A stretch of 64,000 nt of DNA from Chitinophagaceae bacterium UBA4407 (GCA_002390845.1 DGQT01000050.1:48781-112780), one strand, 5' to 3'; positions 4,684 to 56,716 are shown, counted from the first letter of the stretch. Notes: generated from the letters alone by a model not told the origin. Program-made: numbers and translations.

Positions 4684-4841
4684 GCTGTACAAGTGTGCGA
4701 TCCCGAAATAATCCTGAATCAAGTTCAGGACGGGACGGGCTGCCACGCTTCGCTTAAATGTTGCCATGAAAAGGGAACTTAGAACCGAGCGTGGCAAGAA
4801 AAGCTTCATTAATATTCTACAGCCGGGCTCATGATTAAAAA
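4684..4841 (+). repeat. CPIR long form, R orientation
   Basis: GTACAAGTGTGCGA is followed by an insert, then CAAGAAAAGCTTCATT..AGCCGGGCTC. The insert reads TCCCG..TCCTGAA/TTCAGGA..CGGGA, GCCACGCTTCGCTTAAATGTTGCCATGAAA..GAGCGTGG. Confidence 0.85.
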
Positions 4842-4905
4842 CAAACTTTAATATCACGCTGATCGAAATAAAATTCGTAAATTAAACTTCTTTATAAATG
4901 CATTA

Positions 4906-6021
4906 ATGAGAAGTTTGTACACCTTGGTATTTTCTAATAATTTAAAGTACCGCATCACCAGGCATTTTATTTTCTGGATGTTATGGATATCGTTCTACGC
5001 CTTTGTTGAATCGTACAGGGCTTATGAAATGAGGCATGCAGATTTCTGGTCTTACTTTCCTATTGCATGGGGGTCGATGCTGATTCAAATACCGATTGAT
5101 ATAGCCTTCTGCTATTCTGTAATCTATTTTTTACTACCCCATTTTTTTTTGAAGGGAAGGTATTTTGAATTTTTTCTGTGGTGGATTGTTTTTGCGTTTG
5201 CTACAGGCATTCTGGAAAGTCAATATTACTATTGGGCTGTGGGTGCATACCGAACCTGGTTTGGCTTAAACGCTCCTGTTAAAAACGGAAGCTCATTTTT
5301 GAGTGCATTGGAAATAGTAGGTTCTTTAAATACAGAAGGTGGCTTTGCTATTGCCATAAAATTTGGAAAAATGTTTGCTGTAAAACAAAAGGAAGCTGCG
5401 CTTTTATCCAGCGAGAAAGAGCAGTTGAAAGCTACTTTTGATTCAAGGGTTTATGATGAAGTAAAACCTACTTTTTTATTTAATGTGTTAAACCGCCTTT
5501 ACTCCCGTACACAAGAAACCAAAATTGATGCAGGGGAAAGTATAAAAAAGATCAATGACCTTATCTTATACACAAGCTATGATGCAAAAAAAACCTTGTT
5601 GCCATTAACCCGTGAACTGGAATCTTTAAAAGAATATATTGAACTTGAAAAGATATCGTATAATTATGCGGTACAGGCAGCATGTAACATAAAAGGCAGC
5701 ACACAGAATAAATTAATTGCACCTTATATTTTGATACCGGTTGCAGAATATGCTTTTGCCAACATTGGAAATGGTACCATACAGGATGCCTGGATAAATA
5801 TTGAAATTATCGTAGAGGGTAATGACCTTCGGGCAAAATTCTCCAGCAGCAAATCATCTGAAACATCAACCTTACTGGGCGATAAGAGCATTAATATCAA
5901 TTTAATTGCACAACGGTTGCAGCTACTCTATCCCGGCGGTCATCATCTGAAGAAAATTATTGAGTCGGAAAAATTAGTGATTGACCTTTACGTAAATCTT
6001 TCTATGCGCCTTGGCATATAA
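4906..6021 (+). CDS. multi-pass membrane protein with degenerate LytS/YehU-type histidine-kinase domain (phospho-acceptor His replaced)
   Basis: The N-terminal half is hydrophobic. EVKPTFLFNVLN sits where the family has PHFLFNSLN, and PVAEYAFAN sits where the N-box ENAIKH is expected. Confidence 0.55.
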   Translation: MRSLYTLVFSNNLKYRITRHFIFWMLWISFYAFVESYRAYEMRHADFWSYFPIAWGSMLIQIPIDIAFCYSVIYFLLPHFFLKGRYFEFFLWWIVFAFATGILESQYYYWAVGAYRTWFGLNAPVKNGSSFLSALEIVGSLNTEGGFAIAIKFGKMFAVKQKEAALLSSEKEQLKATFDSRVYDEVKPTFLFNVLNRLYSRTQETKIDAGESIKKINDLILYTSYDAKKTLLPLTRELESLKEYIELEKISYNYAVQAACNIKGSTQNKLIAPYILIPVAEYAFANIGNGTIQDAWINIEIIVEGNDLRAKFSSSKSSETSTLLGDKSININLIAQRLQLLYPGGHHLKKIIESEKLVIDLYVNLSMRLGI

Positions 6022-6025
6022 TTAA

Positions 6026-6057
6026 AAAAGCAGGTAGTAGAAACTACTTGCTTTTAT
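6026..6057 (+). terminator. rho-independent terminator after 4906..6021
   Basis: Hairpin AAGCAGGTAGT-AGAA-ACTACTTGCTT followed by TT(A)T. Confidence 0.6.
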
Positions 6058-6274
6058 GTGTTTTATCACATGAGAAAAATTGTAAAATAAAATTAAGTCT
6101 CCGCTATTACCTGCAACTAAAAAAGATACCCGCCTGTGATATTTTGACACTAAAGGATGATTTTATTTCTGCGTGTTTTTTATTTCTTAAAAGCTTTTGT
6201 CAAATTCCTTTTTAAGCGGTTATATACCGTGATTAATGCTGCAACAAATAGCATTGTTATCTTCTCTTATTTAA

Positions 6275-6320
6275 AGAGAGCGGGGATCTGGTTTCATAGT
6301 AGTAATACAGTTGGGCTATT
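6275..6320 (+). repeat. degenerate CPIR fragment (outer arm only), R orientation
   Basis: GGTTTCATAGTAGTAATACAGTTGGGCT resembles the outer arm at 2870-2903. The core has decayed to GAGCGGGGATC. Confidence 0.45.
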
Positions 6321-6453
6321 AATATAATTTACGCACTAAATGTTGTTGCTGTTAATAAAGCATCGTGGAAAAGAAAGCAAAAAGGAAACAGTATGAACAA
6401 TTCAGATTGGAAATGAGGCGTTAATTTCCGGAAACACAAAACAGACAAAGGGT

Positions 6454-7506
6454 ATGGCTGACCTTACTGCAAATACTACTTACCTGGAAAAAATAAACCA
6501 GTTTTTCCTATATGCAGTTGTGCCACTGCTCGGCATAACTGTACCCAATATTACAGGTATTATTGTTAACAGTCATTATAATTGGTGGCAGTTAATTTTA
6601 TCTTACGGATTTTTTATGCTGACCTCTTTTCTTGTTTGGAAAGGTAATATGTTGCTTGTGAAAAATATACGCAAACAGTCAGAAAAAAATACTCCGGCAT
6701 ATTACCGTATTGTTTTTTCGTACTTCATTTCCACTTTAATTTATACCGTTGTTTTGAGCGGGGCAATGCTTACGGGGTGGTATTTTATTTTTAATGGCCG
6801 TGCTTTTAACTGGGTGGCGATATCGCAGACTACTGCATTAATTGTATTCTGTGTAATACTGATCAATACGATCTATGAAATTATTTTTCTGCGCCAGGAA
6901 ATGGAAGATAGTTTTTTAAAAATGCGGCTGCTTGAAATGGATAAAATAAAAGCCGAGCTAACCTCTCTTAAATCTCAGATCGATCCGCATTTTATTTTTA
7001 ATTCACTAAACACGCTTTCGTATCTTATTACCGGCAAACCCGCAATCGCCAAGATATTCAATGAAACCCTTGCAAAAGTATACCGCTATATTTTAGTGTA
7101 CAAAGATGAAAATTTAGTGTTCCTTAAAGAAGAACTTGAGTTTGTAACCAACTATTTTTACCTAATCAGCATCCGGTACGAGCAAGCCGTAAACCTTATT
7201 ATAGAAATACCAGATACAAAAGCAGAAAACTATCTTATTACACCTGTTTCACTCCAGGTACTTATTGAGAATGCGATCAAGCATAACGACTTTTCAAAGA
7301 AAGAACCGCTTACTGTTTTCTTAAGTGTGCAATCTGGTTTTGTAACAGTAAACAACAGAATCAGGAAAAAGGAATATGCCGAAGCGTCCTCCGGTATCGG
7401 GCTTAATAATTTAAAGGAACGTTCATTTCTTATTACAAACAGAAATATTATTATAACCAATGAACATAATGAATTTACGGTAAGGGTCCCCATTTTAAAA
7501 TCTTAA
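6454..7506 (+). CDS. LytS/YehU-family sensor histidine kinase
   Basis: N-terminal TM helices, H-box QIDPHFIFNSLN, N-box LIENAIKHN. A LytTR regulator gene follows immediately. Confidence 0.85.
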   Translation: MADLTANTTYLEKINQFFLYAVVPLLGITVPNITGIIVNSHYNWWQLILSYGFFMLTSFLVWKGNMLLVKNIRKQSEKNTPAYYRIVFSYFISTLIYTVVLSGAMLTGWYFIFNGRAFNWVAISQTTALIVFCVILINTIYEIIFLRQEMEDSFLKMRLLEMDKIKAELTSLKSQIDPHFIFNSLNTLSYLITGKPAIAKIFNETLAKVYRYILVYKDENLVFLKEELEFVTNYFYLISIRYEQAVNLIIEIPDTKAENYLITPVSLQVLIENAIKHNDFSKKEPLTVFLSVQSGFVTVNNRIRKKEYAEASSGIGLNNLKERSFLITNRNIIITNEHNEFTVRVPILKS

Positions 7507-7509
7507 CCT

Positions 7510-8277
7510 ATGCTACGCATTGTAATTATAGAAGATGAGCAACCTGCTGTTGAAAACCTGCTGAATGAATTGAATACGGTTACCGGTGAATACACTATCG
7601 TTACTACATTACAATCTGTAGAAGAAAGTATTCGTTGGTTCAATACCCGGGAAGCAGAGATCGATCTTATCTTTCTCGATATTCACTTAAGCGATGGTTT
7701 GTCGTTCAATATTTTTAAATCGGTAAACATAACCACACCAATTGTTTTTACTACGGCCTACGATAAGTATTTGCTCAATAGCCTTGAGTACAACGGCATT
7801 GATTATTTATTAAAACCCATAAGCCATGAAAAATTAAAACACACACTCGCCAAACTCAGAAACCTTAAAACGCATTTTACCAATAATTACCTGCAATTGT
7901 TAAACCTGTCATCAACAGAAAAAAACACATTTTTAAAAGACCGCATTACGGTGCGTAAAGGCATTGAATTTCAAAGTATCAGAACCGAAGACGTTGCTTT
8001 TTTTTATACCGAACACAAGCTGGTATTTCTTGTAGATAAAGATGGAAAAAAATTTATGGCACATGCCACCAACCTCACCGATCTTATGCTGCAGCTTCAT
8101 AAGCGAATGTTTTACCGCGCCAACAGAAAATATATCATCAACATTAATTTTATAAAAAAGTATAAACCGCTCGACCGTGTAAAAATTGAAGTAGATCTAA
8201 GTGTTCCGGTTTCTGAAAGCATTGTTATCAGCCAGGAAAATACCAGCAGTTTTAAAGACTGGATCGAAAATTTATAA
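7510..8277 (+). CDS. LytR/AlgR-family response regulator (REC + LytTR)
   Basis: IVIIEDE..DLIFLDIHLSDG receiver domain and a C-terminal LytTR domain (FYRANRKYIINI). Confidence 0.9.
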   Translation: MLRIVIIEDEQPAVENLLNELNTVTGEYTIVTTLQSVEESIRWFNTREAEIDLIFLDIHLSDGLSFNIFKSVNITTPIVFTTAYDKYLLNSLEYNGIDYLLKPISHEKLKHTLAKLRNLKTHFTNNYLQLLNLSSTEKNTFLKDRITVRKGIEFQSIRTEDVAFFYTEHKLVFLVDKDGKKFMAHATNLTDLMLQLHKRMFYRANRKYIININFIKKYKPLDRVKIEVDLSVPVSESIVISQENTSSFKDWIENL

Positions 8278-8284
8278 AGCCATT

Positions 8285-8398
8285 TTTATTAGCCGGGCCA
8301 GAGAATTACTATGAAGCTTCACTTGCCACGCTCGTTTCACAGTTCCTCTTTCATGGCAACATTTAAGCGAAGTGTTGCAACCTGTCTTCACGCACCTT
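8285..8398 (-). repeat. CPIR long form, L orientation, inner end truncated or decayed
   Basis: AGCCGGGCC..ATGAAGCTTCACTTGCCACGCTCGTTTCACAGTTCCTCTTTCATGGCAACATTTAAGCGAAGTGTTGCAA. Degenerate fragments continue to about 8500. Confidence 0.75.
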
Positions 8399-8504
8399 TA
8401 TCATGTTTTATTCCGGTGCCTCAAAACACGAACCCGGGCTTGGAATTAGAATGCAGTCTGCCCGCAACCCTTGCTCATTGAAAATATTTTGTACAAATTA
8501 AAAA

Positions 8505-8813
8505 TTAATGTCCGGCGATGTTTGCCCGGCCCGTTGGTGTTTGTCTGTATTTTTCTGGTTTGGTTTTAGTTCTTTCAATTAGATTCCTTGCTTCCAGATC
8601 AAGTTTAATTGTTTCTCCGTACCATTGTACACCTCCTTCAAAATTATCTTTTACCCTGTTATACAATTCTTCCATAAGTTCTGTATGTGAGAGTTCTTTG
8701 CCAGTTAAAATGGTTAAAATATTTTCCCGGATAAAATTGTATTTGCTTAATAAGATCTTCTTGTTTGTTTTGTCAGCTTGTGGATGAAGTGTTTGAATTT
8801 TTTCTTCTTTCAT
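8505..8813 (-). CDS. conserved hypothetical small protein
   Basis: Clean ORF. ATG at 8813; the ORF track extends to a GTG at 8843. I recognise no domain. Confidence 0.5.
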   Translation of the reverse strand: MKEEKIQTLHPQADKTNKKILLSKYNFIRENILTILTGKELSHTELMEELYNRVKDNFEGGVQWYGETIKLDLEARNLIERTKTKPEKYRQTPTGRANIAGH

Positions 8814-9042
8814 TTTGCTTTTAGTGTTAAGAATTTGCCTCACTGTTTATTTATCGGAAATTTAAAACTTGTTTTTTATGGTTAACCGGCAATTGAAAAT
8901 ACCAAAGTTTCTATAATCTTTTTACATATTATTTTTTGCCGTTGGTGGTCTGTACTTAGCAGCAATTCGCTCCAATCTACGCATCTGTAAAAGCTCATTT
9001 ATAATCAGAACGTACAGGTACGCTGCCGCACAGGGTTATAGT

Positions 9043-9103
9043 GTTCAAATGTGCGACGCAACAGCAGCTTAATCTGTGTTTCAAAAGCCTGGCTCAAAAA
9101 AAT
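9043..9103 (+). repeat. CPIR short form, R orientation
   Basis: Core lies at 9051-9061. Outer arm CAGCAGCTTAATC..GCCTGGCTCAAAAAAA. Confidence 0.8.
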
Positions 9104-9104
9104 A

Positions 9105-9148
9105 ATCAAAAAAAAGGCCGTTTCAAATTTATGTTTGAAGCGGCCTTT
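9105..9148 (-). terminator. rho-independent terminator of the PUL lipoprotein gene
   Basis: On the minus strand, AAGGCCGCTTCAAA..TTTGAAACGGCCTT is followed by a T-run. Confidence 0.7.
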
Positions 9149-9167
9149 TGCATTAATAGAAGAAAAA

Positions 9168-10142
9168 TTATCTTGGACCTACATAAGTCAGTGTATCATA
9201 AATTTCCTGGTTAGGTCTTCCTATTTGTGTCATTATATATGCGGCGTAAATTGTTTTTGTTGCAGCATCATAACGGCTGTCTGTAACTGCAGGGTTCAAT
9301 TGAAAAGCTCTGCCTCTTCCATCATCCGGTGCAAGATTTCTTACATCAATTAATTTATCTGTTGCCAGGTCAAAGATGTATTGCGGTGCAGTTGCGCCAA
9401 AGCTTGTAATACCACCATCTGTTGTAAAACCTGGCTGGCCCGGGCCCGTTTCCTGTGTTAGTATTGTTACACTGGCAGGCCCCGATGTTATCATTGAAAC
9501 TGCTGAAGGCCATTGATAGGTGTCGCCATCTGCAATACCATAAGCAGACCAGCCAGCCAACTTCATTCTAAGATTATAATTGCCATCATATTTATTCTTG
9601 ATTGCAATAGCTACCACTCCGCTGCCAAGATTTCCACTGATGGTGTAACCAGATTCCTGTACAGCAGTTATCTGGAAGCCAACGGCCCAGTCTGCGCCAA
9701 GAAAATCTGATGGCTTGAATTTTATTTTCAGAAATCCTGTATACGAACCTTTTGGAATGGTAACTACACCACCATCTGCTAAAGTAAAAAAAGCAGATGG
9801 GTCGCCATAAGCAGTTCCGTTTGCCGTATTGTAATCATCTACCAGACTTTGTTTTGGTGTTAGTGTTATGTGCAGGTCTTGTAGTGCAGCATCATGCGTT
9901 GCAAGGTTTACAGGAATAAGATCAACAGTTGTATCTGCATTTGAATTATCATAAGATACAACAAGGAAATTGCTTACATCTGCTGCAGTTAATTTTATTT
10001 CCACCACACTTGGTGTTCCGCCTGTAGCGCGTACAGATTGTATAAGGCCCTTATCATAATCTTTGTCTTTAAGACAGCCTGTAACACTTACTGCAATTAA
10101 AACAACAGCTATTGCGGAAGATTTTATTTTATTTAGTTTCAT
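9168..10142 (-). CDS. PUL-associated cell-surface lipoprotein (SusE/F position; DUF1735/DUF4361-like)
   Basis: Lipobox AVSVTGC; located directly downstream of susD; beta-rich sequence. Confidence 0.6.
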   Translation of the reverse strand: MKLNKIKSSAIAVVLIAVSVTGCLKDKDYDKGLIQSVRATGGTPSVVEIKLTAADVSNFLVVSYDNSNADTTVDLIPVNLATHDAALQDLHITLTPKQSLVDDYNTANGTAYGDPSAFFTLADGGVVTIPKGSYTGFLKIKFKPSDFLGADWAVGFQITAVQESGYTISGNLGSGVVAIAIKNKYDGNYNLRMKLAGWSAYGIADGDTYQWPSAVSMITSGPASVTILTQETGPGQPGFTTDGGITSFGATAPQYIFDLATDKLIDVRNLAPDDGRGRAFQLNPAVTDSRYDAATKTIYAAYIMTQIGRPNQEIYDTLTYVGPR

Positions 10143-10171
10143 ATTGATTTTCTTTTTTAGTCAGTAAGTTT

Positions 10172-11686: not shown

Positions 11687-11721
11687 GTATAATCAGTTTA
11701 ATTATTTTATCTGTGTATCAA

Positions 11722-11948: not shown

Positions 11949-11969
11949 CTCTCTAAAAATTTTAAGCAG

Positions 11970-18777: not shown

Positions 18778-18912
18778 TGAAGGGTGCGATCCCGAAATGA
18801 ATTTGGGACAGGCTGTCACGCTACGCTTAAATGTCGCCATGAAAGGGGAACTGTGAAACGAGCGTGGCAACGGAACTTTAATGTATGTTCAAATGCCTGG
18901 TTCATAAAAAAT
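18778..18912 (+). repeat. CPIR long form, R orientation
   Basis: GGGTGCGATCCCGAAATGAATTTGGGACAGGCTGTCACGCTACGCTTAAATGTCGCCATGAAAGGGGAACTGTGAAACGAGCGTGGCAAC..GCCTGGTTCATAAAAAA. Confidence 0.85.
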
Positions 18913-24012: not shown

Positions 24013-24282
24013 TTTTGGGCCGGGCAGTAGAACATGAATGAAGCTGCTGTTGCGTCGCACACTTGTATGTTCGGATTATAATTGAGCAACGCGAAGTAAT
24101 CAAAACAACGTGCGTCATTTCGAAGGAGGTACGACTGAGAAATCTCATACTCGTTGCAACAGATTTCTCAATACGTTCGAAATGACGCACAGGATGCTAA
24201 ATGATGCCATGGATTCCGAACGTACACGAGTGCGACGCAAGGAACGATGAAAAAAGAACCAATGCATGGCTCAAAATAAAAA
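24013..24282. mobile_element. compact CPIR doublet between tamB and the TamL-like gene
   Basis: L core lies at 24050-24060 and R core at 24230-24240. The centre has a perfect 15-bp inverted repeat, GTGCGTCATTTCGAA / TTCGAAATGACGCAC, enclosing GAGAAATCT / AGATTTCTC. Confidence 0.85.
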
Positions 24283-24297
24283 TTATTAAATTAAGGA

Positions 24298-27864: not shown

Positions 27865-28012
27865 CTGTACAAGTGTGCGATCCCGAAATAAATTCGGTCC
27901 CGAAATACTTCGGGATGCCACGCTTCGCTTAAATGTCGCCATGAAAGAGGAACCGTGAAACGAGCGTGGCAAGGAACGCTTAATTGAAATTATTAAGCCC
28001 GGCTCAAAAAAA
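27865..28012 (+). repeat. CPIR long form, R orientation
   Basis: Full-length copy. Hairpins CCGAA/TTCGG and CCCGAA/TTCGGG are followed by GCCACGCTTCGCTTAAATGTCGCCATGAAA..GAGCGTGGCAAG, and AAGCCCGGCTCAAAAAAA ends at the permease stop. Confidence 0.88.
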
Positions 28013-29449
28013 TTACACCTTCCTGTTTGCCACTGCAATATAATACAACGGAATGCCAGCAAGTGTTATAAGCAAACCTGGCCATGTATAACCGCTTTTA
28101 AAAAATATAAGCAACACGCAAAATGATACGCCCATTAAAATATAAATGGCGGGCAGCACGGGATACCCGAATGCTTTATATGGCCTTTCGGCATCGGGCA
28201 TTTTTTTGCGCAGAATAAAAATACCCGCAATGGTGAGTACATAAAAAATTACAACGACAAAGGAAACCATATCGAGCAGATCGCCATACTTGCCGCTTAA
28301 GCATAAAATGGAAGCTACCAGGCATTGCGCCCATAAAGACCATGCAGGCACTGCATTTTTATTTAATGTTCCGGCATTTTTAAAGAACACGCCATCTTTT
28401 GCCATGGTATAATAAACCCTTGCCCCGGCGATGATCAACCCGTTGTTGCAGCCAAATGTAGAGACCATGATGAGTACCGCAATTACGTAAGTGCCCACGC
28501 TGCCGAAAATATTATTGGCGGCGGCAACTGCTACCCGGTTTTGCGGCGCATAAGCTATTTCGCTTACAGGCAGCACAGACAAATACATGAGGTTGCAGCT
28601 AATATAAATTACAGTAACAATCAACGTTCCGAGGAAAAGGCTTAAGCCGATATTTTTCTTGGGGTTTTTTATTTCGCCTGCAATAAAAGTTACATTGTTC
28701 CATGCATCGCTGCTGAAGATGGAGCCTACCATTGCACTGGCCATTGCACCCAGCATGGCAACACCCATTACAGGTTGCCAGGAAATAATATCTGTACCAT
28801 TGGGTGTGGTTTGTTTGGTGGCTTTCATCATGCTCCATGCATCGCTCCAGTTAAGGCTCCATATTTCTGATTTGGCAGCAAAAAAACCGAAAATAATCAA
28901 GCCGAATAATGCCAGTAGTTTGGTAGAAGTAAAAATATTCTGTATCCATTTACCACCTTTTAATCCTTTGGTATTGGTATAGGTTAGAAACACAAGAAGT
29001 AAAATGGAAACCAACTGTGCGGGGTAAACTTTGAATGAGCCCAGCGCAAAAATGATATTCTCATCTTTTAGCTCAAGAACCGGGAAAAAATATCCGGCAA
29101 ACTTGCTGAAAGCCACCCCCACAGCAGCCATGGTACCGGTTTGAATAACGGCGAAAAAACTCCAGCCATATAAAAAAGCAATCAGTGGATTGTATGCTTC
29201 TTTAAGATAAACATATTGTCCGCCAGCTTTAGGAAACATGGCGCTGAGTTCACCATAACTTAATGCAGCGGTTAAGGTCATAAAACCTGTGAGGCCCCAT
29301 GCAAGTATCAGCCAGCCTGCAGAGCCGAGGTCTTTAAGCATATCGGCGCTTACAATAAAAATACCCGAGCCGATCATGCTGCCGGCAACAATCATGGTTG
29401 CATCTAAAAGTCCGAGCGATGGTTTAAATGACGATGAGGTTTCTTGCAT
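28013..29449 (-). CDS. APC-superfamily amino-acid permease
   Basis: 478 aa with about 12 TM segments and an N-terminal GSGIF motif. Confidence 0.88.
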   Translation of the reverse strand: MQETSSSFKPSLGLLDATMIVAGSMIGSGIFIVSADMLKDLGSAGWLILAWGLTGFMTLTAALSYGELSAMFPKAGGQYVYLKEAYNPLIAFLYGWSFFAVIQTGTMAAVGVAFSKFAGYFFPVLELKDENIIFALGSFKVYPAQLVSILLLVFLTYTNTKGLKGGKWIQNIFTSTKLLALFGLIIFGFFAAKSEIWSLNWSDAWSMMKATKQTTPNGTDIISWQPVMGVAMLGAMASAMVGSIFSSDAWNNVTFIAGEIKNPKKNIGLSLFLGTLIVTVIYISCNLMYLSVLPVSEIAYAPQNRVAVAAANNIFGSVGTYVIAVLIMVSTFGCNNGLIIAGARVYYTMAKDGVFFKNAGTLNKNAVPAWSLWAQCLVASILCLSGKYGDLLDMVSFVVVIFYVLTIAGIFILRKKMPDAERPYKAFGYPVLPAIYILMGVSFCVLLIFFKSGYTWPGLLITLAGIPLYYIAVANRKV

Positions 29450-30250: not shown

Positions 30251-30392
30251 TTTTTAACCCAGGTTTTGAATAAGAATGAGGCTTTTCTTGCCACGCTCGG
30301 TTCACAGTTCCTCTTTCATAGCAGCAAAAGCTCAGTAGCTTTTATGAGCGTATTTCGGCTTTGCTTAATATTCAAAGGATCGCATACTTGTG
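30251..30392 (-). repeat. CPIR long form, L orientation, diverged insert
   Basis: AATGAGGCTTTTCTTGCCACGCTCGGTTCACAGTTCCTCTTTCAT is followed by the replaced segment AAAAGCTCAGTAGCTTTT, then ..ATTTCGG..GGATCGCATACTTGTG. Confidence 0.7.
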
Positions 30393-30467
30393 TTATAAAA
30401 TAAATTCAGGCTTTCAACAGCCGGTACACCCGTGTGTAAAAGCCTGTATAAAAGTGCGGTTTTTTCA

Positions 30468-45550: not shown

Positions 45551-45720
45551 TTTTGAGCCGGGCTGAGGAAGAAGTATTAAGCTTTTGTTGCGTCGCACAC
45601 TTTTTCAGTTGATTCTCTGGTCAACAGTTGACTGTTTACTGTCGACCGATGTTCTAAACGTACAAGTGAGTGACACAACGGAAGATGAAAAAAGATATAT
45701 CGCAAGGTTCAAAAAAAAAT
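45551..45720. mobile_element. compact CPIR doublet between carA and yigZ
   Basis: L core lies at 45588-45598. The R core is the variant GTGAGTGACACAAC at 45666-45679. The centre is only about 65 nt. Confidence 0.85.
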
Positions 45721-49531: not shown

Positions 49532-49646
49532 GCTCTTTGTTTATGATTTTTGCTAAAGTATGCTTAAACACAAAACAACGGATATGCTGTGCATAAATTA
49601 TGATGCAATGTGCTTTTTGTGAAACATTTTGCAAACTATAACAGCC

Positions 49647-49931
49647 ATTTTGAGCCGGGCAGATGTATTTTAATTTGGCGTTCCTTGCGTCGCACATTTC
49701 CTCTGAAGGAACAATAACCGGCAAAGCGAAGATGGCAACATCGGTGTGACTGCTCAAAGCCGTCTGACCGTTATCCTTCATGTGCCTGTGTGTGCCTATG
49801 GTTCATGATTGATTGTACTGTTGGTTCTTCGTCGACCGTTGACCGTCGACTGTCGAATGCTGTTCCGAACGTACAAGTGAGTGACACAACAGGCGATAAA
49901 AAGCATTCCTGTAGCTGGTTACAAAATATTT
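49647..49931. mobile_element. compact CPIR doublet between exbB and the M61 peptidase gene
   Basis: L core lies at 49685-49695. The R core is the variant GTGAGTGACACAAC at 49877-49890. The outer arm ends at the M61 stop codon. Confidence 0.85.
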
Positions 49932-51797
49932 TCAGGATTGTGGCTTCAGCCATTGATCTCTTAATAAACGTTGCTGCTGATCTGCATTTTTATCAAACGT
50001 AAGTGTATTGTATTTCTTAATTGGATACTTTGTCATTTTTCCTTTCAGTTCAACCTGAGCTTCATTTCCCGATGCATCTTTGCGCATTACTTTCACAATA
50101 AAATCATCACCAGGATTTGAAGTCTTTCCAAAATCAGTAAAGAACTTGTTAGCGTTGGCGCCTGTAATTTCTTCACCATTAACAGCAATAATTTCATCAT
50201 TTTTCTGGTAGCCCATTTGCCTGCCCAATTCATTCATGCTTGTTACATCGTTTATGATCAGCCTTCCCGTTGCCGGGTTAAAACCAATACCTACTTTACC
50301 CATTGAAAACATACTGTCTTTTGTTTCAACTTCTTTTTGAAAATTTACGCCAACAATCCTAAATACATCTTCAAGTGGCAAAGGTTGGTTACCAGCAACA
50401 TAAGTATCTAAAAACTGTTTTATCTCAGGGTAAGTAAACTTTTCAATTTCACCAAACAACTCATCGTCTTTAAAGCCTTTTTGCTTGCCGTATTTGTTTG
50501 AAAGATCATGAATTAAGTTCATTATGCCGTATTTGCCGTTGGATAACTGTAGCAGTTTTATATCCAGGCACATATTAATCAATGCCCCTTTCTGGTAAAC
50601 ATTGCCAAACTGGTTTTTATAAGTACCCAATGTTCTGCTGCTCATTACTGTGAACGGAACGGTATCGTTGTATCTTGTTCTTGAATTGGTAATTTTTCCA
50701 CCTAACCTTTTAAGTAGGTCTTCAGGTGTTATCAACCCATATTTTTCCTGTACCATGTTGGCGTGATACTCTGTTGAGCCTTCGTACAACCAAAGATGTT
50801 GCGACATTCTTGGGCTGTTAAAATCAAAGAATTGTATTTCTTCTGAATGTATTGTAAGCGGTGTGATAATATGAAAAAACTCATGCGCCGCATGATCGGT
50901 AAATTCTACCGACATTTCCTCTGCTGATCTTTCAGGGTAGTAATACATAGAGCAATAAGAATGTTCCAATGCACCCTCACCATCGGAATAGCCGGGCTTA
51001 TCGTTAAAGTACACAAGAAACGCATATTTATCAACGGGTAATTTACCACCAAGGTATTTTCCCTGCGCCTGTAAAAGTGTATCTAATTTTTTTGCAAGAA
51101 ATTTCGAAGTAATTTGTTTTGTTGGCGAATACACGCTGATCAAAACATCTGTTGCACCAATCTTTATAATAGTGGTGTCCGGCGCATCGTACATAAAAGG
51201 ATTGTCAACGATCCTGTTATAAGATTCTGTAGTAAACCTGTCGTTTGTATCGCTGTTATCAAGATCAGTTAAAGCAGTACTGCCATATATATTCGATGGA
51301 TGCTTAATATTAATTTCATAAGTAACATTTTTCATATCGTCGAAATAACCAAGAAAGCAATGGTTGTTGATTACATAGTTGGTATCCTTCTGAATGTTGC
51401 TGCCTGCTGGTTCAAAGATCACCTGTTTTGTGGTGGAATCATCGTAAGAATCATTCACCAGGTAAGAGAGTCTGTATAATTTATCAGCATCAGCAATACT
51501 CCAACTGTTCACATCAATTTTAACAACAGTAAGCGCATTCCCCTTTTTATCAAAAGCCTGAAACTGCTCAATATAACGGCCGTAATCATCTTCAGAATAA
51601 GTGCCGGGAACAATCTTCGGAATATGATACGTAATAGTAGCTTGTTTAATTTTCGGCACAAGCAGCTCTATTTTTACTTTATCATCACTCACATTTACGA
51701 GGTCAATCATAAACTTATACTGGTTTGTTTTCTTTGCAAAAGAAGAAAAACAAAAAATGGTTAACACCATTACTGCCAAAGAGATTTTCCTGAACAT
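49932..51797 (-). CDS. M61-family metallopeptidase with C-terminal PDZ domain
   Basis: Signal peptide, HEFFH zinc motif with a downstream E, and a PDZ-like C-terminus (NDEIIAVNGEEI). Confidence 0.8.
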   Translation of the reverse strand: MFRKISLAVMVLTIFCFSSFAKKTNQYKFMIDLVNVSDDKVKIELLVPKIKQATITYHIPKIVPGTYSEDDYGRYIEQFQAFDKKGNALTVVKIDVNSWSIADADKLYRLSYLVNDSYDDSTTKQVIFEPAGSNIQKDTNYVINNHCFLGYFDDMKNVTYEINIKHPSNIYGSTALTDLDNSDTNDRFTTESYNRIVDNPFMYDAPDTTIIKIGATDVLISVYSPTKQITSKFLAKKLDTLLQAQGKYLGGKLPVDKYAFLVYFNDKPGYSDGEGALEHSYCSMYYYPERSAEEMSVEFTDHAAHEFFHIITPLTIHSEEIQFFDFNSPRMSQHLWLYEGSTEYHANMVQEKYGLITPEDLLKRLGGKITNSRTRYNDTVPFTVMSSRTLGTYKNQFGNVYQKGALINMCLDIKLLQLSNGKYGIMNLIHDLSNKYGKQKGFKDDELFGEIEKFTYPEIKQFLDTYVAGNQPLPLEDVFRIVGVNFQKEVETKDSMFSMGKVGIGFNPATGRLIINDVTSMNELGRQMGYQKNDEIIAVNGEEITGANANKFFTDFGKTSNPGDDFIVKVMRKDASGNEAQVELKGKMTKYPIKKYNTLTFDKNADQQQRLLRDQWLKPQS

Positions 51798-51893
51798 ATT
51801 ACACGTTTATTTGAAGCCGCAATTAAATAAATTCATTATTCACAAAAGCATATTTTTGGATGAGTAACACACAGCAAATGATTAAAGGCAATT

Positions 51894-52152
51894 ATGAACC
51901 AGGCTTTTAATTTATAATGAGGCTTTACTTGCCACGCCCGGTTCAGGGTTCTGTTTTCATGGCGACATTTAAGCGAAGTGTAGCAGCTAAATAAGCACCT
52001 ATTACTAATAGGGCCTTTCTATAATACCACTTAAACATTTAATGCATTCGATTTAATAATGCGGCTGCACAGTGCTGCATAGCATTACAACAGTACAAGT
52101 GAGTGACACAACCAAAGCTTAATAGTAGCAGCATAGTTTAGTACAAAAAAGT
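51894..52152. mobile_element. CPIR doublet: long-form L half plus variant-core R half
   Basis: The L half is ..AATGAGGCTTTACTTGCCACGCCCGGTTCAGGGTTCTGTTTTCATGGCGACATTTAAGCGAAGTGTAGCAGC. The R variant core lies at 52099-52112. Confidence 0.75.
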
Positions 52153-52168
52153 AATAGTTTTTCCGGTT

Positions 52169-52203
52169 TAAAAAAAGGGCCGCTTCAAGATTGAAGCAGC
52201 CCG
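52169..52203 (-). terminator. rho-independent terminator of the tail-fibre-like gene
   Basis: On the minus strand, GGGCTGCTTCAA-TC-TTGAAGCGGCCC is followed by TTTTTTT. Confidence 0.8.
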
Positions 52204-52223
52204 TTACATACCCCTTTGAAAAC

Positions 52224-53921
52224 TTATTTAGTAAGCACCATTTTTTTTGTGTCGGCAATTTTTCCGTCGATAATTAATGAGTACTGGTACATACCAGCGC
52301 TAAGCATACTGCCATCGATATTTACAGTGCCGGCACCAGCGGTTGTAAGTTGCATTTGCTTTAAAATTTTGCCCGTGTTATCTGTAATAATCAACTGTGC
52401 AGTTTTAAAACCCGCCGGAATATTATACCGGATGGTTGTTGCTTTATTAAAAGGATTTGGTGTGTTTTGTTCTAACCGGGTGTTGCTGATTGCAATGCTA
52501 TTGATTGCTCCGCCATCAGTTGCAGATTGACTTTGAGACAATTTATCGATTACCTGTTGCATTTGTTCAATCTGTTGCTGTTGTTCCTGCATGCCTCTTA
52601 TAAGTACCGGGATAATATCAGCATACATTACACCCAGCTTAGCAGAAGGCACTTTTGTTTTCTTGCCTGTTGTTTCGTCAACACTATATTGCCAGTCTCT
52701 TACAACTTCGGGCAATACCTTTTGAATCTCCTGTGCTATTACACCAAGTTTATCACCTTCGTCTGGATTGTTTTTCCAGGCGTATTTTACGCTACGTAAT
52801 TTCATTATTTCTTTAAGGCCATAATTCATATCGCGTATATTGGTTTTATCCCTTGCGTCAGAAGTGTTGATTGTGCCATCTACTGCCCATACATCCTGCC
52901 AGCGGTAGGTTGAATTTCCCAGGCTGTAAACATTATCTGTTACAGGCAACCAGCTTGCTGCCGTAGATAAGCTGCTGGTACCGGCATCCTGTATATATTC
53001 CGCAGTACCAATGCCTACCAAAGCGCCTAGTGTGCTACCTATTTGTAAGGTTCTGGTATTGGGGGCAGTTTGAATACCCATATTGCCTGAAAATCGCGAG
53101 GTGCCAGTAATATCAAGTATATACGAAGGTGTTGCATTCCCAATTCCTACCCTGCCATTACTAAGATTTATTGCCATTTTATTGCTGCCGTTGCCCAAAT
53201 AATTAAACTGATCTGTTGCATCATCGTACTGCAGCCCCCAGTTGCTGAAAGCTTTGGAATGGGCCAGTACCATTCTTGCATTTGCAGTTGTTTGGTCAGT
53301 CATATAGATCATTGCCGAGTTTTCGTTGGTGGCCCCAAAAGTTGGAAACCTTATTCCCTGTTGGTAATAAGTAAAAAACAAATCACCCAGACCATTAGTG
53401 CCCGCTACAGTAAGGTCAGATGAAATTTTGGTGCTGTTAAGAATATCTATTTGTGCCGCAGGCGTAAACTGATTGCCAATCTGAACATTTCCGGTACCCC
53501 TGTTTACAGCAAAGCTGCTAATGTATGGGCTTGTAACATTTATATTAAAACTGTTACCCGATTGGTCGTAACCAAAAATGGTTTTTAATGTATCATTTGT
53601 TCTTAGCTCAATGGTTGCGTTGTTGCTTCTGCCATTTAAAATCAGCAACGGTAAAAGCGAAGAACCTAACGAATCATCGATACGCGTTAGCCCGTAAAAA
53701 TTGTATTTTGCCAAAGGGTTTGTTGTACCAAAACCAATTTTGCCATCAGCTTTAATGGTCATGCGCTGCAGGCTGTTGGTGTAAAGTTTAAGGTCAAAAG
53801 CATTCCTGCTGCCAAGCAGTTCTGTTCCGGTTAAAGTGTTACCGTTAAGCTTCCAGGTTTGTGCGTTTGCGCCGCTACTTACAATAAGTATAAGAAATGC
53901 AGCAATGAAGATTTGTTTCAT
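52224..53921 (-). CDS. tail-fibre-like secreted protein with S74-type intramolecular-chaperone domain and T9SS C-terminal sorting domain
   Basis: Signal peptide and repetitive beta N-terminal region. SDARDKTNI..LRSVKYAW..GVIAQEIQKVLPEVV is a Peptidase_S74-like chaperone segment. The C-terminus NTPNPFN..TIRY..MYQYSLIIDGK is a Por/T9SS CTD. Confidence 0.75.
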   Translation of the reverse strand: MKQIFIAAFLILIVSSGANAQTWKLNGNTLTGTELLGSRNAFDLKLYTNSLQRMTIKADGKIGFGTTNPLAKYNFYGLTRIDDSLGSSLLPLLILNGRSNNATIELRTNDTLKTIFGYDQSGNSFNINVTSPYISSFAVNRGTGNVQIGNQFTPAAQIDILNSTKISSDLTVAGTNGLGDLFFTYYQQGIRFPTFGATNENSAMIYMTDQTTANARMVLAHSKAFSNWGLQYDDATDQFNYLGNGSNKMAINLSNGRVGIGNATPSYILDITGTSRFSGNMGIQTAPNTRTLQIGSTLGALVGIGTAEYIQDAGTSSLSTAASWLPVTDNVYSLGNSTYRWQDVWAVDGTINTSDARDKTNIRDMNYGLKEIMKLRSVKYAWKNNPDEGDKLGVIAQEIQKVLPEVVRDWQYSVDETTGKKTKVPSAKLGVMYADIIPVLIRGMQEQQQQIEQMQQVIDKLSQSQSATDGGAINSIAISNTRLEQNTPNPFNKATTIRYNIPAGFKTAQLIITDNTGKILKQMQLTTAGAGTVNIDGSMLSAGMYQYSLIIDGKIADTKKMVLTK

Positions 53922-54097
53922 AGTAATTTTTTTTTATTAATAATTTTTGCATGAAAGTATACCTGTAGTTATGCTCACTGCAAATGCAATTATTAAATGG
54001 CAACAGTTAGTGAGTAAACGGTATGGCATAAATGAGCTTTAGGGTTTATTTTTGATCAGTAGAAAATTGAATGTGAAGCCATTTATTAAAGAAATAA

Positions 54098-54160
54098 TTT
54101 TTTGTACCGGGCAGTGTGGTTATCAAATCAGCATTCTTGCGTCGCACACTTGTACTGCAA
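54098..54160 (-). repeat. CPIR short form, L orientation
   Basis: TTTTTTGTACCGGGC outer arm; core lies at 54137-54147. Confidence 0.8.
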
Positions 54161-54255
54161 CAATTCTTTTGAACAGTTCAGGTGCAGCTACGCTTACATT
54201 TTGCAGGGCTGGCATTCATTAACATTATTCAGCAATAAAGCCAACAGTATCTATC

Positions 54256-56247
54256 ATGCAGTTCCTGAAAATAAATATTTGCATCTTCATTTTACACGCT
54301 GCAGTTGGTGCAGCGGCGCAGGATGAAGCTCAAATCCTGCTGCTTAAAAAAGAGCTTGCTTCGGCAAGTGGCGATTCAGCAAAAGCAGTAGCCTTTGCAA
54401 AACTCGGGTATGAATACCGCAACACCAATCCGGATTCAGGTATCTACTACACAAACAGCAGTCTTGCACTTTCGCAAAAAATAAAAGATCAGGCGCTTAT
54501 TGCAAAAGCGAAATATCAACTGGGCCGCCTTTATCATACAAAAAGTAACGACAGTGCAGCAATCATCCTTTATAATGAATCATTAAAATTATTCGAGCTG
54601 CTAAAAGATACAGCGAATATGGCAACCCTTCACATGCAGATGGGTTATGTGTATTCAAGAAGCTTCCGCAATGCAGATATGCTTAAAGAGTTCCTGCTAT
54701 CGCTTAAACTTGCCGAAAGAAGTAACAACAAAGAAAAAATGTCTGATGCATTGTATTCCATCAGTGATTATTACCGGCATATAAAAGACGACAGTACTGC
54801 TGTTATTTACCTTAAACAGGCACTTGAGATCGATACACAACTTGGTAACAAGAAAAATATTGCAAGTGATTACCAATACCTGGGATTGTGTTACGGACGG
54901 TTGCGAAAATACAGAGAGGGTGAAGAATACTTGAACAAGGCACTTGTAATATTTAAATCGCTTAAAGATGATTTTCGCCTTGCCACATCCTACAGCTACC
55001 TGGCTGACCTCTACAATGAAAAGCAAGATTTTGATAAAAGCATCGAAGCTTATTTAAAAGCTAAAAATATTATGGACGCCATTGGTGCAAAAATAGAATC
55101 GGCAGATATTACTGATAATATTGCTTCCGAATTTTTAAGAAAGAAAGAATATGCCAATGCCATAAAATATGCCACAATGGGCCTTGCAGTTGCAAATGAA
55201 ATAAAGGCCCAACCTCAGTTATACTATTTATACAATACACTTGCAAAAGCCTCAGAAGGTTTAATGGATTATGAAAGCGCTTACGAGTACATGCAAAAAG
55301 CAGCCGTACTGCACGACACACTGATAGCACTTGAACAGAACGACAAACTTGCACAAATGCAAACACAGTTCGAAACAGAAAGAAAAGAGAAAGAGAACCA
55401 GCTATTAAAAGCTCAAAACGAAACAGCCAATGCCAACCTGCAACGCAACCGCATATTTCTTATTGCAGCAGTTTCAGGCTTACTACTATTGGCTATTCTG
55501 TTGTATGTTATTTATAAAAACAAAGAAGCAAAAGCGAAATACATTTCAGTATTACAAAACCTTAATAAACAGCTAAACGATAAAAAAGAAGAAATATCGG
55601 GCATTAATACAGTACTGCAGTTAAAAGCATTGCGTGCACAAATGAACCCCCATTTTATTTTTAATTGTATGAGTTCTATACAGGAATGTATCTTAACCGG
55701 CCGTGTAGACGATGCCAACAAATACCTCTCAAAACTTTCCCGCCTGTTAAGAATGGTGCTGATGTATGCAGACGAAGAAAGTATTGCACTGGATAAGGAA
55801 TTAGAAATGCTTGAACTGTATCTTGAGCTTGAATCTGTGCGGCTGAAACAAAATTTTCAATATACAATAGAGATTGATGAAACCATATTTCCCGACGAAG
55901 TGCAGGTGCCTACCTTATTGCTGCAGCCTTTTGTTGAAAATGCAATATGGCATGGCCTTCTTCATAAACAGGATGACCGGTTACTTACAGTAAAAATATC
56001 CTGCACAAATAATTATTTGCATTGCATTATAGAAGACAATGGAATAGGCAGGCAAAAAGCAGCAGAATTATTACAATTTAAAAAACGCCATCAAAGTAAG
56101 GGTTTAAAAATTACCGCAAACCGGCTAGTCATTCTTAAAGAACGGACAGGCCACCCCGAAACCGGTTTTGAAATTATTGATCTCTTTAATGCGTCACAAG
56201 AGGCAACAGGTACCAGGGTTTATATAAAACTTCCGTTCGATAACTAA
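54256..56247 (+). CDS. TPR-repeat sensor histidine kinase (LytS/YehU-type kinase core)
   Basis: Signal sequence, about 7 TPR-like repeats, one TM helix, H-box QMNPHFIFNCM, N-box FVENAIWHG. No adjacent response regulator. Confidence 0.8.
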   Translation: MQFLKINICIFILHAAVGAAAQDEAQILLLKKELASASGDSAKAVAFAKLGYEYRNTNPDSGIYYTNSSLALSQKIKDQALIAKAKYQLGRLYHTKSNDSAAIILYNESLKLFELLKDTANMATLHMQMGYVYSRSFRNADMLKEFLLSLKLAERSNNKEKMSDALYSISDYYRHIKDDSTAVIYLKQALEIDTQLGNKKNIASDYQYLGLCYGRLRKYREGEEYLNKALVIFKSLKDDFRLATSYSYLADLYNEKQDFDKSIEAYLKAKNIMDAIGAKIESADITDNIASEFLRKKEYANAIKYATMGLAVANEIKAQPQLYYLYNTLAKASEGLMDYESAYEYMQKAAVLHDTLIALEQNDKLAQMQTQFETERKEKENQLLKAQNETANANLQRNRIFLIAAVSGLLLLAILLYVIYKNKEAKAKYISVLQNLNKQLNDKKEEISGINTVLQLKALRAQMNPHFIFNCMSSIQECILTGRVDDANKYLSKLSRLLRMVLMYADEESIALDKELEMLELYLELESVRLKQNFQYTIEIDETIFPDEVQVPTLLLQPFVENAIWHGLLHKQDDRLLTVKISCTNNYLHCIIEDNGIGRQKAAELLQFKKRHQSKGLKITANRLVILKERTGHPETGFEIIDLFNASQEATGTRVYIKLPFDN

Positions 56248-56529
56248 TTATTTTGCAGCAACCTTTTTTGCTGCTTTTTTTACAGTTGCTTTTGTTGCTT
56301 TTTTTACTACCGCAGTTTTTTCCGCTTTCTTTATTACAGGCGCTTTGCTTACGTTTTTAAAACCGTGCGCTAAAATTTTTGCTGCTTTTTTTACGCGGTT
56401 CTTAAATTTTTTTTCGCCAATTTCAGCTTTAAGTTCTCCAAGTGCAGCCTCTATTTTTTTCTCTATGTCTTCACGGATTGTTTTTTTTGAAACAGTATCT
56501 GGTTGCGCAGCTTTTTTTGTATTTGCCAT
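56248..56529 (-). CDS. histone H1-like Lys/Ala-rich basic protein
   Basis: 93 aa with a KKAxK repeat-rich tail (AVVKKATKATVKKAAKKVAAK). Confidence 0.6.
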   Translation of the reverse strand: MANTKKAAQPDTVSKKTIREDIEKKIEAALGELKAEIGEKKFKNRVKKAAKILAHGFKNVSKAPVIKKAEKTAVVKKATKATVKKAAKKVAAK

Positions 56530-56587
56530 TTGTAAATTATTTCATACAAACTTAACAATAAGATAATATTGTCAATGTTAAGTTTTG

Positions 56588-56716
56588 TTTTTTTGAGCCA
56601 GGCATATGAACATATATGAAGCATTGTTGCCACGCTCGTTTCGAGGTTCTGTTTTCATGGCAACATTTAAGCGAAGCGTGGCAGCCCGTCCCGAATTCAT
56701 TTCGGGATTGCACGCT
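56588..56716 (-). repeat. CPIR long form, L orientation
   Basis: TTTTTTTGAGCCAGGC..ATGAAGCATTGTTGCCACGCTCG..CATGGCAACATTTAAGCGAAGCGTGGCAGCCCGTCCCGAATTCATTTCGGGATTGCAC. Confidence 0.88.

Follow-up and report, generated by a model that had tools for sequence, protein, structure and literature searches.

The window analysed here, a stretch of 64,000 nucleotides, contains seven long copies of a short intergenic repeat, and the question they raise is what lies in the middle of them. The initial annotation described a structured insert that splits the core palindrome exactly at its centre, and offered two readings, either another small element directed at the core or a structured RNA module. The coordinates of the copies (c1 to c7) and of their parts are collected in Table 1.

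The parent short repeat is a polar unit of about 60–70 nt that reads inner arm, head A (GTACAAGWGTGCGA^CGCAAS) and outer arm (..AAAGCTTCAT..GCCNGGCTCAAAAAA). Its core palindrome is the 9 nt sequence TGCGACGCA, which is preceded by GTACAAG and has the slot for inserts (^) at its centre. There are 2,602 copies in this genome (G000), the short core is present in 1,500–2,200 copies in each of four congeners, and it is abundant in all four as well as in several Chitinophagaceae genera; none was found outside the Chitinophagaceae in the genomes sampled. In 54–62% of copies the outer end points towards a stop codon, at a median distance of 17–24 nt (62% and 17 nt in the placement analysis). Long copies are placed like short ones, and they lie in either orientation with respect to the adjacent genes.

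The seven long copies are readily recovered. The 16-mer GAAMCGRGCGTGGCAA, the 16-nt end common to all of them, matches exactly these seven loci in the 64-kb window when up to two mismatches are permitted (chance expectation 0.10), and GCCACGCTTCGCTTAAATGT matches six of the seven with up to three mismatches (chance expectation 0.00 in the window). The position ascribed to the insert is correct for four of the seven, c1, c3, c4 and c7, where 78–94 nt lie exactly between GYGCRA and CAAS; c2 and c6 are without a clean left half-core, and c5 has a different 5′ part, retaining the left half-core (GTATGCGA) and the alternative head that we call head B while lacking both the TCCCGAA hairpin and GCCACGCTTCGCTTAAATGT. 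That hairpin had been thought to begin every insert, and it is absent from c2 and c5. Several finer details were described accurately, namely the nested hairpin of c1, the G-U pair in the hairpin of c3, and the uncompensated changes in an 8-bp stem in c2 (GCAACACT) and c6 (GCTACACT). Contrary to the description, conserved sequence does not end at CAA(C/G) but runs on beyond it into the ordinary outer arm.

Table 1. Locations of the long copies, their component parts and associated features.
Feature	Coordinates	Strand	Details
c1, long copy	4684..4841	+	insert 4701-4794, 94 nt
c1 left half-core	4687-4700	+	GTACAAGTGTGCGA
c1 outer hairpin	4701-4735	+	TCCCG 4701-4705, CGGGA 4731-4735
c1 nested hairpin	4712-4730	+	in loop of outer hairpin; TCCTGAA 4712-4718, TTCAGGA 4724-4730
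c1 GCCACGCT	4742-4749	+	
c1 CGCTTAAATG	4751-4760	+	
c1 head B	4763-4797	+	outer arm runs to GCCGGGCTCA, ~4831
c2, long copy	8285..8398	-	head B, CGCTTAAATG and decayed 5′ stem half GCAACACT
c2 half-core remnant			GGTGCG only; hairpin absent
c2 outer arm			adjoins stop of gene 7510-8277
c3, long copy	18778..18912	+	half-core GGGTGCGA, last base 18789
c3 insert	18790-18867	+	78 nt; one hairpin, TCCCGAA/TTTGGGA; head B ends at 18870
c4, long copy	27865..28012	+	half-core 27867-27880; insert 27881-27969, 89 nt
c4 hairpin, truncated	27881-27897	+	
c4 hairpin, full	27898-27915	+	
c4 GCCACGCT	27917-27924	+	
c4 CGCTTAAATG	27926-27935	+	
c4 head B	27938-27972	+	
c4 outer arm	27974-28012	+	adjoins stop of gene 28013-29449 (minus strand)
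c5, variant copy	30251..30399	-	insert 30291-30389, 99 nt, unrelated 5′ part
c5 half-core	30390-30399	-	AAGTATGCGA
c5 head B, 3′ part	30288-30303		
c6	51894..51985	-	head B, CGCTTAAATG and decayed stem half GCTACACT; left half-core absent
c7, long copy	56588..56716	-	half-core variant GCGTGCAA 56708-56715
c7 insert	56630-56707	-	78 nt; hairpin 56689-56707; head B ends at 56627
Partial eighth copy	57297..57378	+	CAGTGTGCG, then hairpin-like GTGCTGAAA.., then TGCAACGCTTCGCTTATAC; without head B
Complete variant short element	57430-57467		GTATAAGTGAGTGACACAAC; downstream of partial eighth copy
Y1_Tnp genes	C91:74330-75572		flanked by TTGCCCC-N-GGGGCAA hairpins

Across the genome the long form and its modules are present in about 290–320 copies (323 by nhmmer), and the insert is composed of three parts. 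These are small GC-clamped hairpins, one to three in number, each with CAGG or TAAA at its end; a linker, GCCACGCT-TCGCTTAAATGT (also written TGCCACGCT-TCGCTTAAATGT); and head B, YGCCATGAAA-N3-GAAC-N3-GAAMCGAGCGTGGCAAS, which joins the outer arm via ..GCGTG|GCAAS. The insert is not the single unit that had been described: among 289 copies in this genome, the left half-core with a hairpin is seen in 125 and the linker (CGCTTAAATG) in 161, and all three 5′ features (half-core, hairpin, linker) are missing from 58. In G003, G100 and G110 head B sits directly on the outer arm without half-core, hairpin or linker, and in G008 the linker motif is found before an ordinary head A. There are also hairpin-only inserts, GTGCGA|CCCCGAG..GGGGCAGG|CGCAAS, that leave the right half-core intact. 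Constant end modules enclose internal modules that vary in number and kind, as in BOX elements: there are 0–3 hairpins, an optional linker and either head A or head B, and the outer arm is the same throughout.

The left junction is always directly after GYGCRA, and at least three unrelated hairpin types share the slot; about 55% of the head B copies in this genome are without a split core. The sequence following GTGCGA is CGCAAS in about 1,800 cases, TCCCGAAA in 38, CCCCGAGT in 34, TCCTTCGG in seven and TACCGAAA in five. Nearly all the hairpins fall within the repeat family, and where the context is clear they occupy a single slot of the repeat heads, ..CGA^, after GYGCRA or, in a few copies, after GAAMCGA of head B. 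A generic hairpin scan returned 25 hairpins within ORFs, and among the 14 listed most are unrelated sequences. A true MITE that is nested in hairpin loops has both terminal inverted repeats and a target duplication. Pairwise identity among long copies is 82% in the module, 50% in the outer arms and 34% in the inner arms, compared with 43% and 33% for the outer and inner arms of short copies; the arms are no less diverse in long copies than in short ones, and the module that they enclose is far more strongly conserved. Flank variants show no linkage to internal variants.

Head B itself has about 300 copies in G000, 219 in G003, 21 in G001 and six in G002, and 71 and 30 in other genera. The composite of half-core, hairpin and linker occurs almost exclusively in the source species, and CGCTTAAATGTYGCCATGAAA is present 171 times in G000, 57 times in G008 and 0–3 times in the congeners. 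Orthologous loci are polymorphic in length: G000 has the long form at c4, c5 and c6 and its relatives have the short one, G001 at all three sites and G002 at c4 and c5. The outer arms of G001 at these sites are recognisably orthologous, with head A on the orthologous outer arm at c6, and those of G002 differ; the site orthologous to c3 is empty in both. A short, low-depth contig from metagenome run X10 (319 nt, depth 3.5) has the short form at c4 and a single mismatch in 116 nt of the right flank. Because the sister species and the metagenome strain are short on the same outer arm, the long form appears to have been acquired in place. The direction from short to long is inferred by parsimony, and since head B is old in the genus, precise loss in G001 or G002 would be possible at any single locus.

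We interpret the long form as a DNA-level composite variant of a polar Chitinophagaceae intergenic repeat, at a probability of roughly 0.6, and probably not as a self-standing RNA gene; the best reading is of a mobile or recombining modular DNA repeat variant. In the long form the slot in the middle of the palindrome holds, in order, one to three hairpins, the linker and head B, the last being an older alternative head on the same outer arm. Modules may enter pre-existing short copies in place, either by short-tract recombination or template switching among the thousands of dispersed copies, or through a putative site-specific activity at the core centre, and the data fit gene conversion and site-specific insertion alike. 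The invariant GAAMCGAGCGTGGCAA may be kept because a protein reads it, possibly a mobilising or core-binding factor for which head B would be a second specificity, and a need for single-stranded DNA or RNA to fold may preserve the hairpins as such.

A functional nucleic-acid structure would also fit the strong conservation of head B across genera and the folding z-scores (−2.1 to −4.5 on both strands). The RNA reading, in which the insert is an sRNA or cis-acting switch with two predicted mutually exclusive stems, GCCACGCT/AGCGTGGC and GCCATG/CGTGGC, flanking a five-codon mini-ORF, is quite improbable. Stable folds and alternative pairings are predicted, the mini-ORF (ATGAAA-NNN-GAA-CNN-TGA) closes after five codons in 172 of about 210 copies, and the small 7-bp hairpin covaries, with 80.1% pairing compared with 75.0% after shuffling (observed value attained in 0 of 500). 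The 8-bp stem shows none: 84.6% of cells pair against 84.5 ± 0.2% when shuffled (observed value attained in 150 of 500), all eight pairs form in only 83 of 250 copies, and the variation is one-sided, at 1–6% in the 3′ half and 5–41% in the 5′ half. The alternative stem is invariant in this genome, and in most of the G110 copies listed an uncompensated change (GCCATA) disrupts it. Both strands fold equally stably, gene orientation is mixed, and copy number among the four congeners ranges from six to about 300. The initial annotation recognised no Rfam family, and none was matched at gathering thresholds in the 64-kb window; searching c4 at E-values up to 10 gave chance-level matches only. Shine-Dalgarno initiation is generally not used by Bacteroidota, which also counts against the RNA reading. 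It is highly improbable that the long form is ancestral, with the short core GTGCGACGCAAS as a precise deletion product and the orthologous short forms as losses. The presence of head B in all four congeners and other genera is consistent with this, as is the resemblance, by direct reading, of GAGCGTGGCAAG to GTGCGACGCAAG at 9 of 12 positions; however, the short core is far commoner and more widely distributed, including genera with zero head B (e.g. G005 and G019), the composite is almost restricted to one species, and the same precise deletion would need to have happened independently many times.

The proposal of a second small element targeting the core is supported in spirit. The fixed left junction shared by several insert types, the short orthologous sites and the module's conservation relative to the arms all agree with a discrete non-autonomous element mobilised in trans by a transposase or recombinase (e.g. 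Y1/HUH or IS110) that targets the palindrome centre, which would liken it to insertion sequences targeting REP centres. Y1_Tnp genes are present, and two other genera, with only 30 and 71 head B copies, have head B at distances of 186 nt and 313 nt from Y1 genes. There is a precedent in ISPpu9 of the IS110 family, which is inserted in REP sequences of Pseudomonas putida (PMC12288879), likewise a second element within a pre-existing intergenic palindromic repeat; the insert here differs in being 78–99 nt, non-coding and without a flanking core-dinucleotide repeat. We nonetheless regard such an element as unlikely, given that the insert is a mosaic and that head B stands alone in most copies and in other genera. 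A MITE was rejected, as there are no terminal inverted repeats and no target duplication, and the insert ends TCCCGAAAT.. and ..GAGCGTGG do not match each other in inverted orientation. Neither an encoded transposase nor ends stemming from a coding parent were found: the inserts contain no ORF, and this genome yielded neither a kilobase-scale parent at any half-core or core centre nor an autonomous relative that shares these ends. A cognate RAYT flanked by the repeat itself was also rejected, the hairpin that flanks Y1_Tnp being a different one with only eight genome copies, which also brackets the orthologues in G001, G002 and G004. A bolder version, in which the head centre (..CGA^CG..) is a dedicated integration slot for a putative Chitinophagaceae-wide enzyme specific for sequence or structure, is distinctly unlikely. 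If true, the thousands of heads would be landing pads that collect hairpin cassettes and swap heads, somewhat like attC sites, the reader protein would have head B as its second specificity, and in the long form one would see the outcome of a new recombination system that targets repeats.

For the favoured reading, a modular DNA repeat variant, there are partial parallels in several known systems. With REP, BIME and REPIN-RAYT systems (Bertels and Rainey 2011, PMC3116915; Nunvar et al. 2010, PMC2817692; Di Nocera et al. 2013, PMC3733652) the repeat shares very high copy number, a strictly intergenic location just past stop codons, inverted pairs, and subfamily bursts by lineage. REP sequences are 20–40-nt hairpins with a GTAG or CGTC tag, unlike the longer polar unit with its 9-nt palindrome, and the Y1 transposases of this genus have their own, different hairpin in only eight copies. 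ERIC long forms and cyanobacterial SDRs also offer resemblances. ERIC/IRU, reportedly described by Wilson and Sharp in 2006 (Mol Biol Evol 23:1156), is a 127-bp imperfect palindrome that is likewise dispersed between genes and has short and long forms side by side, the long ones being a subset of copies with about 70 nt of extra segment at a fixed internal site. ERIC copies are far fewer, and the ERIC insert is neither nested mini-hairpins nor a stand-alone alternative head. The SDRs of heterocyst-forming cyanobacteria, reportedly treated by Elhai et al. in 2008 (Genome Res 18:1484), are tiny hairpin elements that nest in repeats and in each other, as do the Chitinophagaceae hairpins (17–31 nt; nested in c1), whose sequences are unrelated and which are almost confined to one repeat family, those of clear context being at one slot. 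The long form also resembles the BOX elements of Streptococcus pneumoniae and S. suis, which have the structure boxA-boxB(n)-boxC with boxB units in tandem arrays, terminal inverted repeats and target duplications, and in S. suis alternative end modules, boxE and boxF, with the inner modules unchanged (Croucher et al. 2011, PMC3049150). The Chitinophagaceae form differs in lacking terminal inverted repeats and target duplications, in a copy number about ten-fold higher, and in inner modules that are unrelated hairpins plus a second head at the dyad of the palindrome. Both are composite intergenic repeats with constant ends and a variable number of largely self-folding internal modules, both vary in length at one locus between strains, and both have alternative end modules in relatives.

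All seven long-form copies reported for the window in the initial annotation (c1 to c7; see the table) are real. When the loci were read and aligned, every one was found to carry a strongly conserved block, ..GCCACGCTTCGCTTAAATGTYGCCATGAAA-N3-GAAC-N3-GAAMCGAGCGTGGCAA(G/C), followed on its 3′ side by AAAGCTTCAT..N12..GCCNGGCTCAAAAAA, which is the outer arm of the short repeat abundant in the window. A scan with GAAMCGRGCGTGGCAA, allowing up to two mismatches, returns exactly these seven loci from the window, where 0.10 matches are expected by chance. The proposal that the insert splits the core palindrome exactly is largely accurate for c1, c3, c4 and c7, in which the extra DNA lies precisely between ..GYGCRA and CAAS. 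It does not extend to c5, which has the left half-core but an insert whose 5′ part is unrelated, to c2, where the half-core is reduced to GGTGCG, or to c6, where it is absent.

Positions of repeat copies, modules and associated genes (window positions unless a contig is named)
Feature	Position	Strand	Insert (nt)	Remarks
Long copy c1	from 4684		94	
Long copy c2	from 8285			
Long copy c3	from 18778		78	
Long copy c4	from 27865		89	
Long copy c5	from 30251		99	
Long copy c6	from 51894			
Long copy c7	from 56588		78	
Decayed eighth 5′ fragment	57297-57378			
Five-codon ORF in head B	27941-27958			Example
Short repeat	24013-24069	minus		Example
Short repeat	24222-24286	plus		Example, paired with 24013-24069
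Short repeat	62515-62571			Example
Short repeat	63187-63256			Example, paired with 62515-62571
Variant head A	45660-45697			
Variant head A	49871-49908			
Variant head A	52093-52130			
Variant head A	57430-57467			
Tandem units in inner arm	45620-45660			
Tandem units in inner arm	49831-49870			
MITE	C37:84333-84621			Outside window
MITE	C21:21368-21655			Outside window
MITE	C57:118061-118350			Outside window
MITE	C95:6458-6744			Outside window
Tandem pair of near-identical Y1_Tnp (IS200-like) genes	C91:74330-75572			Region C91:73840-75911; L001, L002; outside window
Third Y1_Tnp copy	C106:27046-27297			Degenerate, two internal stops
Locus with head B near a Y1 gene	G100:C1:282738-283406			L059
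Locus with head B near a Y1 gene	G110:C1:282128-282866			L060

Rather than being one unit, the insert is a mosaic: nested modules occupy a fixed slot. Among 289 genome copies identified by their conserved 3′ end, the left half-core is followed by the start of a hairpin in 125, CGCTTAAATG is present in 161, and 58 have none of the 5′ features. Genome-wide, GTGCGA is followed by CGCAAS about 1,800 times, by TCCCGAAA 38 times, by CCCCGAGT 34 times, by TCCTTCGG seven times and by TACCGAAA five times. The hairpin CCCCGAG..CGGGG often occurs alone, as GTGCGA/hairpin-CAGG/CGCAAS, and because these copies keep the right half-core intact, the slot lies between the A and the C of the core. One way to parse the full long form is GTGCGA / hairpin(s)-CAGG / C / TGCCACGCT..GAGCGTG / GCAAS, in which case the central C and G would be retained with a second block between them. 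Hairpins can nest one inside another, as in c1, and in a few copies a hairpin follows the GAAMCGA of head B (the conserved block that stands in for the head of the short repeat, head A), a position analogous to the slot in the core. The initial annotation had offered two readings, a small element targeting the core and a structured RNA; the former is the better of the two, but what fills the fixed slot is a mosaic of nested modules rather than one element.

A conventional MITE of about 270–290 bp lies inside the hairpin loops of roughly 15–20 copies. Its terminal inverted repeats are CGCATWGGCGTCAAGCTAA(T/A)TTT, and its target duplications are AT-rich and 8–9 bp long. About 15 complete copies are seen as pairs of ends, and most are in loops of the small GC-clamped hairpins of the long form, so that the MITE represents a third level of nesting. 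A further 5′ context (TTAGCTTGACGC..ATGCGAAAT), which at first seemed free of the core repeat, is this MITE nested in a hairpin loop. A search of this genome for an autonomous parent of kilobase size occupying a half-core found none.

The genome assembly is 5.83 Mb at 39% GC, with the window at C106:48781-112780; its DNA matches are from activated-sludge metagenomes. It belongs to the Chitinophagaceae, with Limnovirga soli as its nearest named relative (87% amino-acid identity for one protein). Profile searches find 323 copies of the long-form module and 2,602 of the short parent repeat, about one per 2.2 kb and an estimated 3% of the genome (taking 65–70 nt per copy). By our own crude ORF calls, 54% of all profile hits to the short repeat (55% excluding hits to long copies) have a stop codon opposite their outer end, with a median gap of 24 nt and a lower quartile of 8 nt; among the long copies 62% do, with a median gap of 17 nt. 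The two forms are thus placed alike, both occurring in both orientations relative to neighboring genes. The short repeat's outer end reads TTTTTTTGAGCC.. on the strand of the gene whose stop codon it adjoins, and since this conserved terminus contains TGA it could supply that stop codon. Some inner arms are made up of tandem GTCGACNGTTGACNGTCRAC-like units, which are a further class of module upstream of the head. There is also a head A subfamily in which GAGTGACACAAC replaces GTGCGACGCAAC, the inner palindrome pair C-G being changed to T-A with compensation. Hairpin selection was ruled out as the cause, since it would leave a loop of just 1 nt; the change fits a site for a dimeric protein with two specificities.

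Comparison of orthologous sites bears on how the long form arises. At c4, the congeners G001 and G002 read ..GGCTGTTGAAAG..GTACAAGTGTGCGACGCAAS.., oriented as in the source genome, with an outer arm in G001 that is recognisably the same (CAAGGAACG(C/T)T..), and a third congener, G003, has no element. At c5 and c6, G001 carries head A, and its outer arm aligns with that of the source genome as far as ..CTTGC, the point from which the heads differ; the c3 site is empty in both G001 and G002. In a freshwater metagenome (run X10), a contig of 319 nt has the short form at c4. It departs from the source genome at one position in 116 of the right flank and over about 16 nt of the inner arm, a hint that the replaced block extended beyond the insert. 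Reads from four metagenomes show that related strains of about 95% identity are also long at c3, with no polymorphism seen there. The simplest reading of these sites is that short forms turn into long ones in place. The 56-nt module averages 82% identity between copies, and the arms average 50% (outer) and 34% (inner) in long copies and 43% and 33% in short ones. The variable positions just outside the insert, W ahead of GTGCGA and S behind CAA, are unlinked to variable positions inside it (p 0.3–1.0), so either the module has come to sit between many unrelated arms or short tracts are exchanged freely between copies.

Among relatives, each of the four congeneric species has 1,500–2,200 copies of the short core ARDGTGCGACGCAAS, and several other genera have 40–470; this core is absent from the genomes sampled outside the family. 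Head B is distributed differently, with about 300 copies in the source genome, 219 in G003, 21 in G001 and six in G002; beyond the genus, two other genera have 71 (G110) and 30 (G100), with traces in about ten more, and counts are low in G005 and G008. In G003, G100 and G110 it is joined directly to the outer arm, and the upstream sequence lacks the half-core, the hairpin and GCCACGCTTCGCTTAAATGT. The motif CGCTTAAATGTYGCCATGAAA is abundant only in the source genome (171) and in G008 (57), a relative in which, in the three copies read, it precedes an ordinary head A. On this distribution, head B is an old alternative head and the composite a species-level amplification. Head B, a 16-nt sequence, stays constant across genera while all of its surroundings change. 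Some IMG/VR viral contigs carry several copies of head A (ACAAGWGTGCGACGCAAS) each (L167–L203, e.g. IMGVR_UViG_2920066549_000001). The full head B pattern has no match in viral contigs; a 17-mer alone has 15, all without the rest of head B and, by a rough estimate, about as many as expected by chance.

Rfam gives no match at gathering thresholds or at permissive E-values, in keeping with the initial annotation, which had recognised no family. Predicted folds do beat shuffled sequence (z −2.1 to −4.5), on both strands, as expected for DNA palindromes. Covariation, a check suggested at the outset, gave a divided answer. The small 7-bp hairpin covaries, with 80.1% of cells pairing versus 75.0% after shuffling (0 of 500 shuffles reach the observed value) and pair types including TA/CG, AT/GC and CG/TA, so that its shape is selected, whether as DNA or RNA. 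The 8-bp stem GCCACGCT/AGCGTGGC shows none: 84.6% of cells pair versus 84.5% shuffled, a level matched in 150 of 500 shuffles, all eight pairs form in only 83 of 250 copies, and variation affects 1–6% of copies in the 3′ half and 5–41% in the 5′ half. The alternative stem GCCATG/CGTGGC is invariant in this genome and so uninformative on covariation here; most of the G110 copies listed disrupt it (GCCATA) with no compensating change. Selection does not act on the large stem as a structure, and in head B it acts on sequence.

In 172 of about 210 copies, head B contains ATGAAA-NNN-GAA-CNN-TGA, a five-codon ORF (M-K-x-E-x-stop) that the conserved GAAC-NN-TGAAMC probably produces incidentally. A leader peptide or attenuator built on it was rejected, as its orientation relative to genes is mixed and covariation absent, and promoter and sigma-54 readings of the motifs do not match consensus spacing, as judged by eye. 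With neither an Rfam match nor covariation in the 8-bp stem, the structured RNA module is not supported, and the long form is very probably a DNA-level variant, selfish or recombinational, rather than an RNA gene.

Y1 transposase genes were considered as a cognate, RAYT-like system and rejected. Each of the C91 genes is preceded by TTGCCCCGGAGGGGCAA hairpins, an arrangement also seen in G001, G002 and G004, and these genes and their orthologues are flanked by a hairpin of their own, TTGCCCC-N-GGGGCAA, present in eight copies in the genome; being bracketed in this way, they are not the cognate system of the repeat. Head B lies 186 nt from a Y1 gene in G100 and 313 nt from one in G110, genomes with so few copies (30 and 71) that chance is unlikely. 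These two genes also carry their own flanking hairpins, however, and we note the proximity as a lead only.

The long form exposes the internal logic of the family, in which the slot at the dyad is fixed, heads can be exchanged and mini-hairpins can nest, and the constancy of head B offers a concrete handle for finding a putative protein that reads or moves the repeats. There are practical consequences too: the repeats break metagenome assemblies, contigs of related strains ending inside elements, and they could be mistaken for riboswitch-like RNAs. No description of the family was found in the literature (core, head B and Chitinophagaceae repeats, with core sequences sought in full text in PubMed Central and bioRxiv). 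In its behavior the parent family resembles REP/BIME/REPIN elements, but neither of the two properties that define a REP-RAYT system was found. The pairing of long and short forms resembles that of ERIC long forms, and the nested mini-hairpins resemble those of cyanobacterial SDRs. The closest analogy to the architecture of the long form is the pneumococcal BOX element, in which the end modules are constant, the self-folding inner modules vary in number and length is polymorphic at a locus (PMC3049150).
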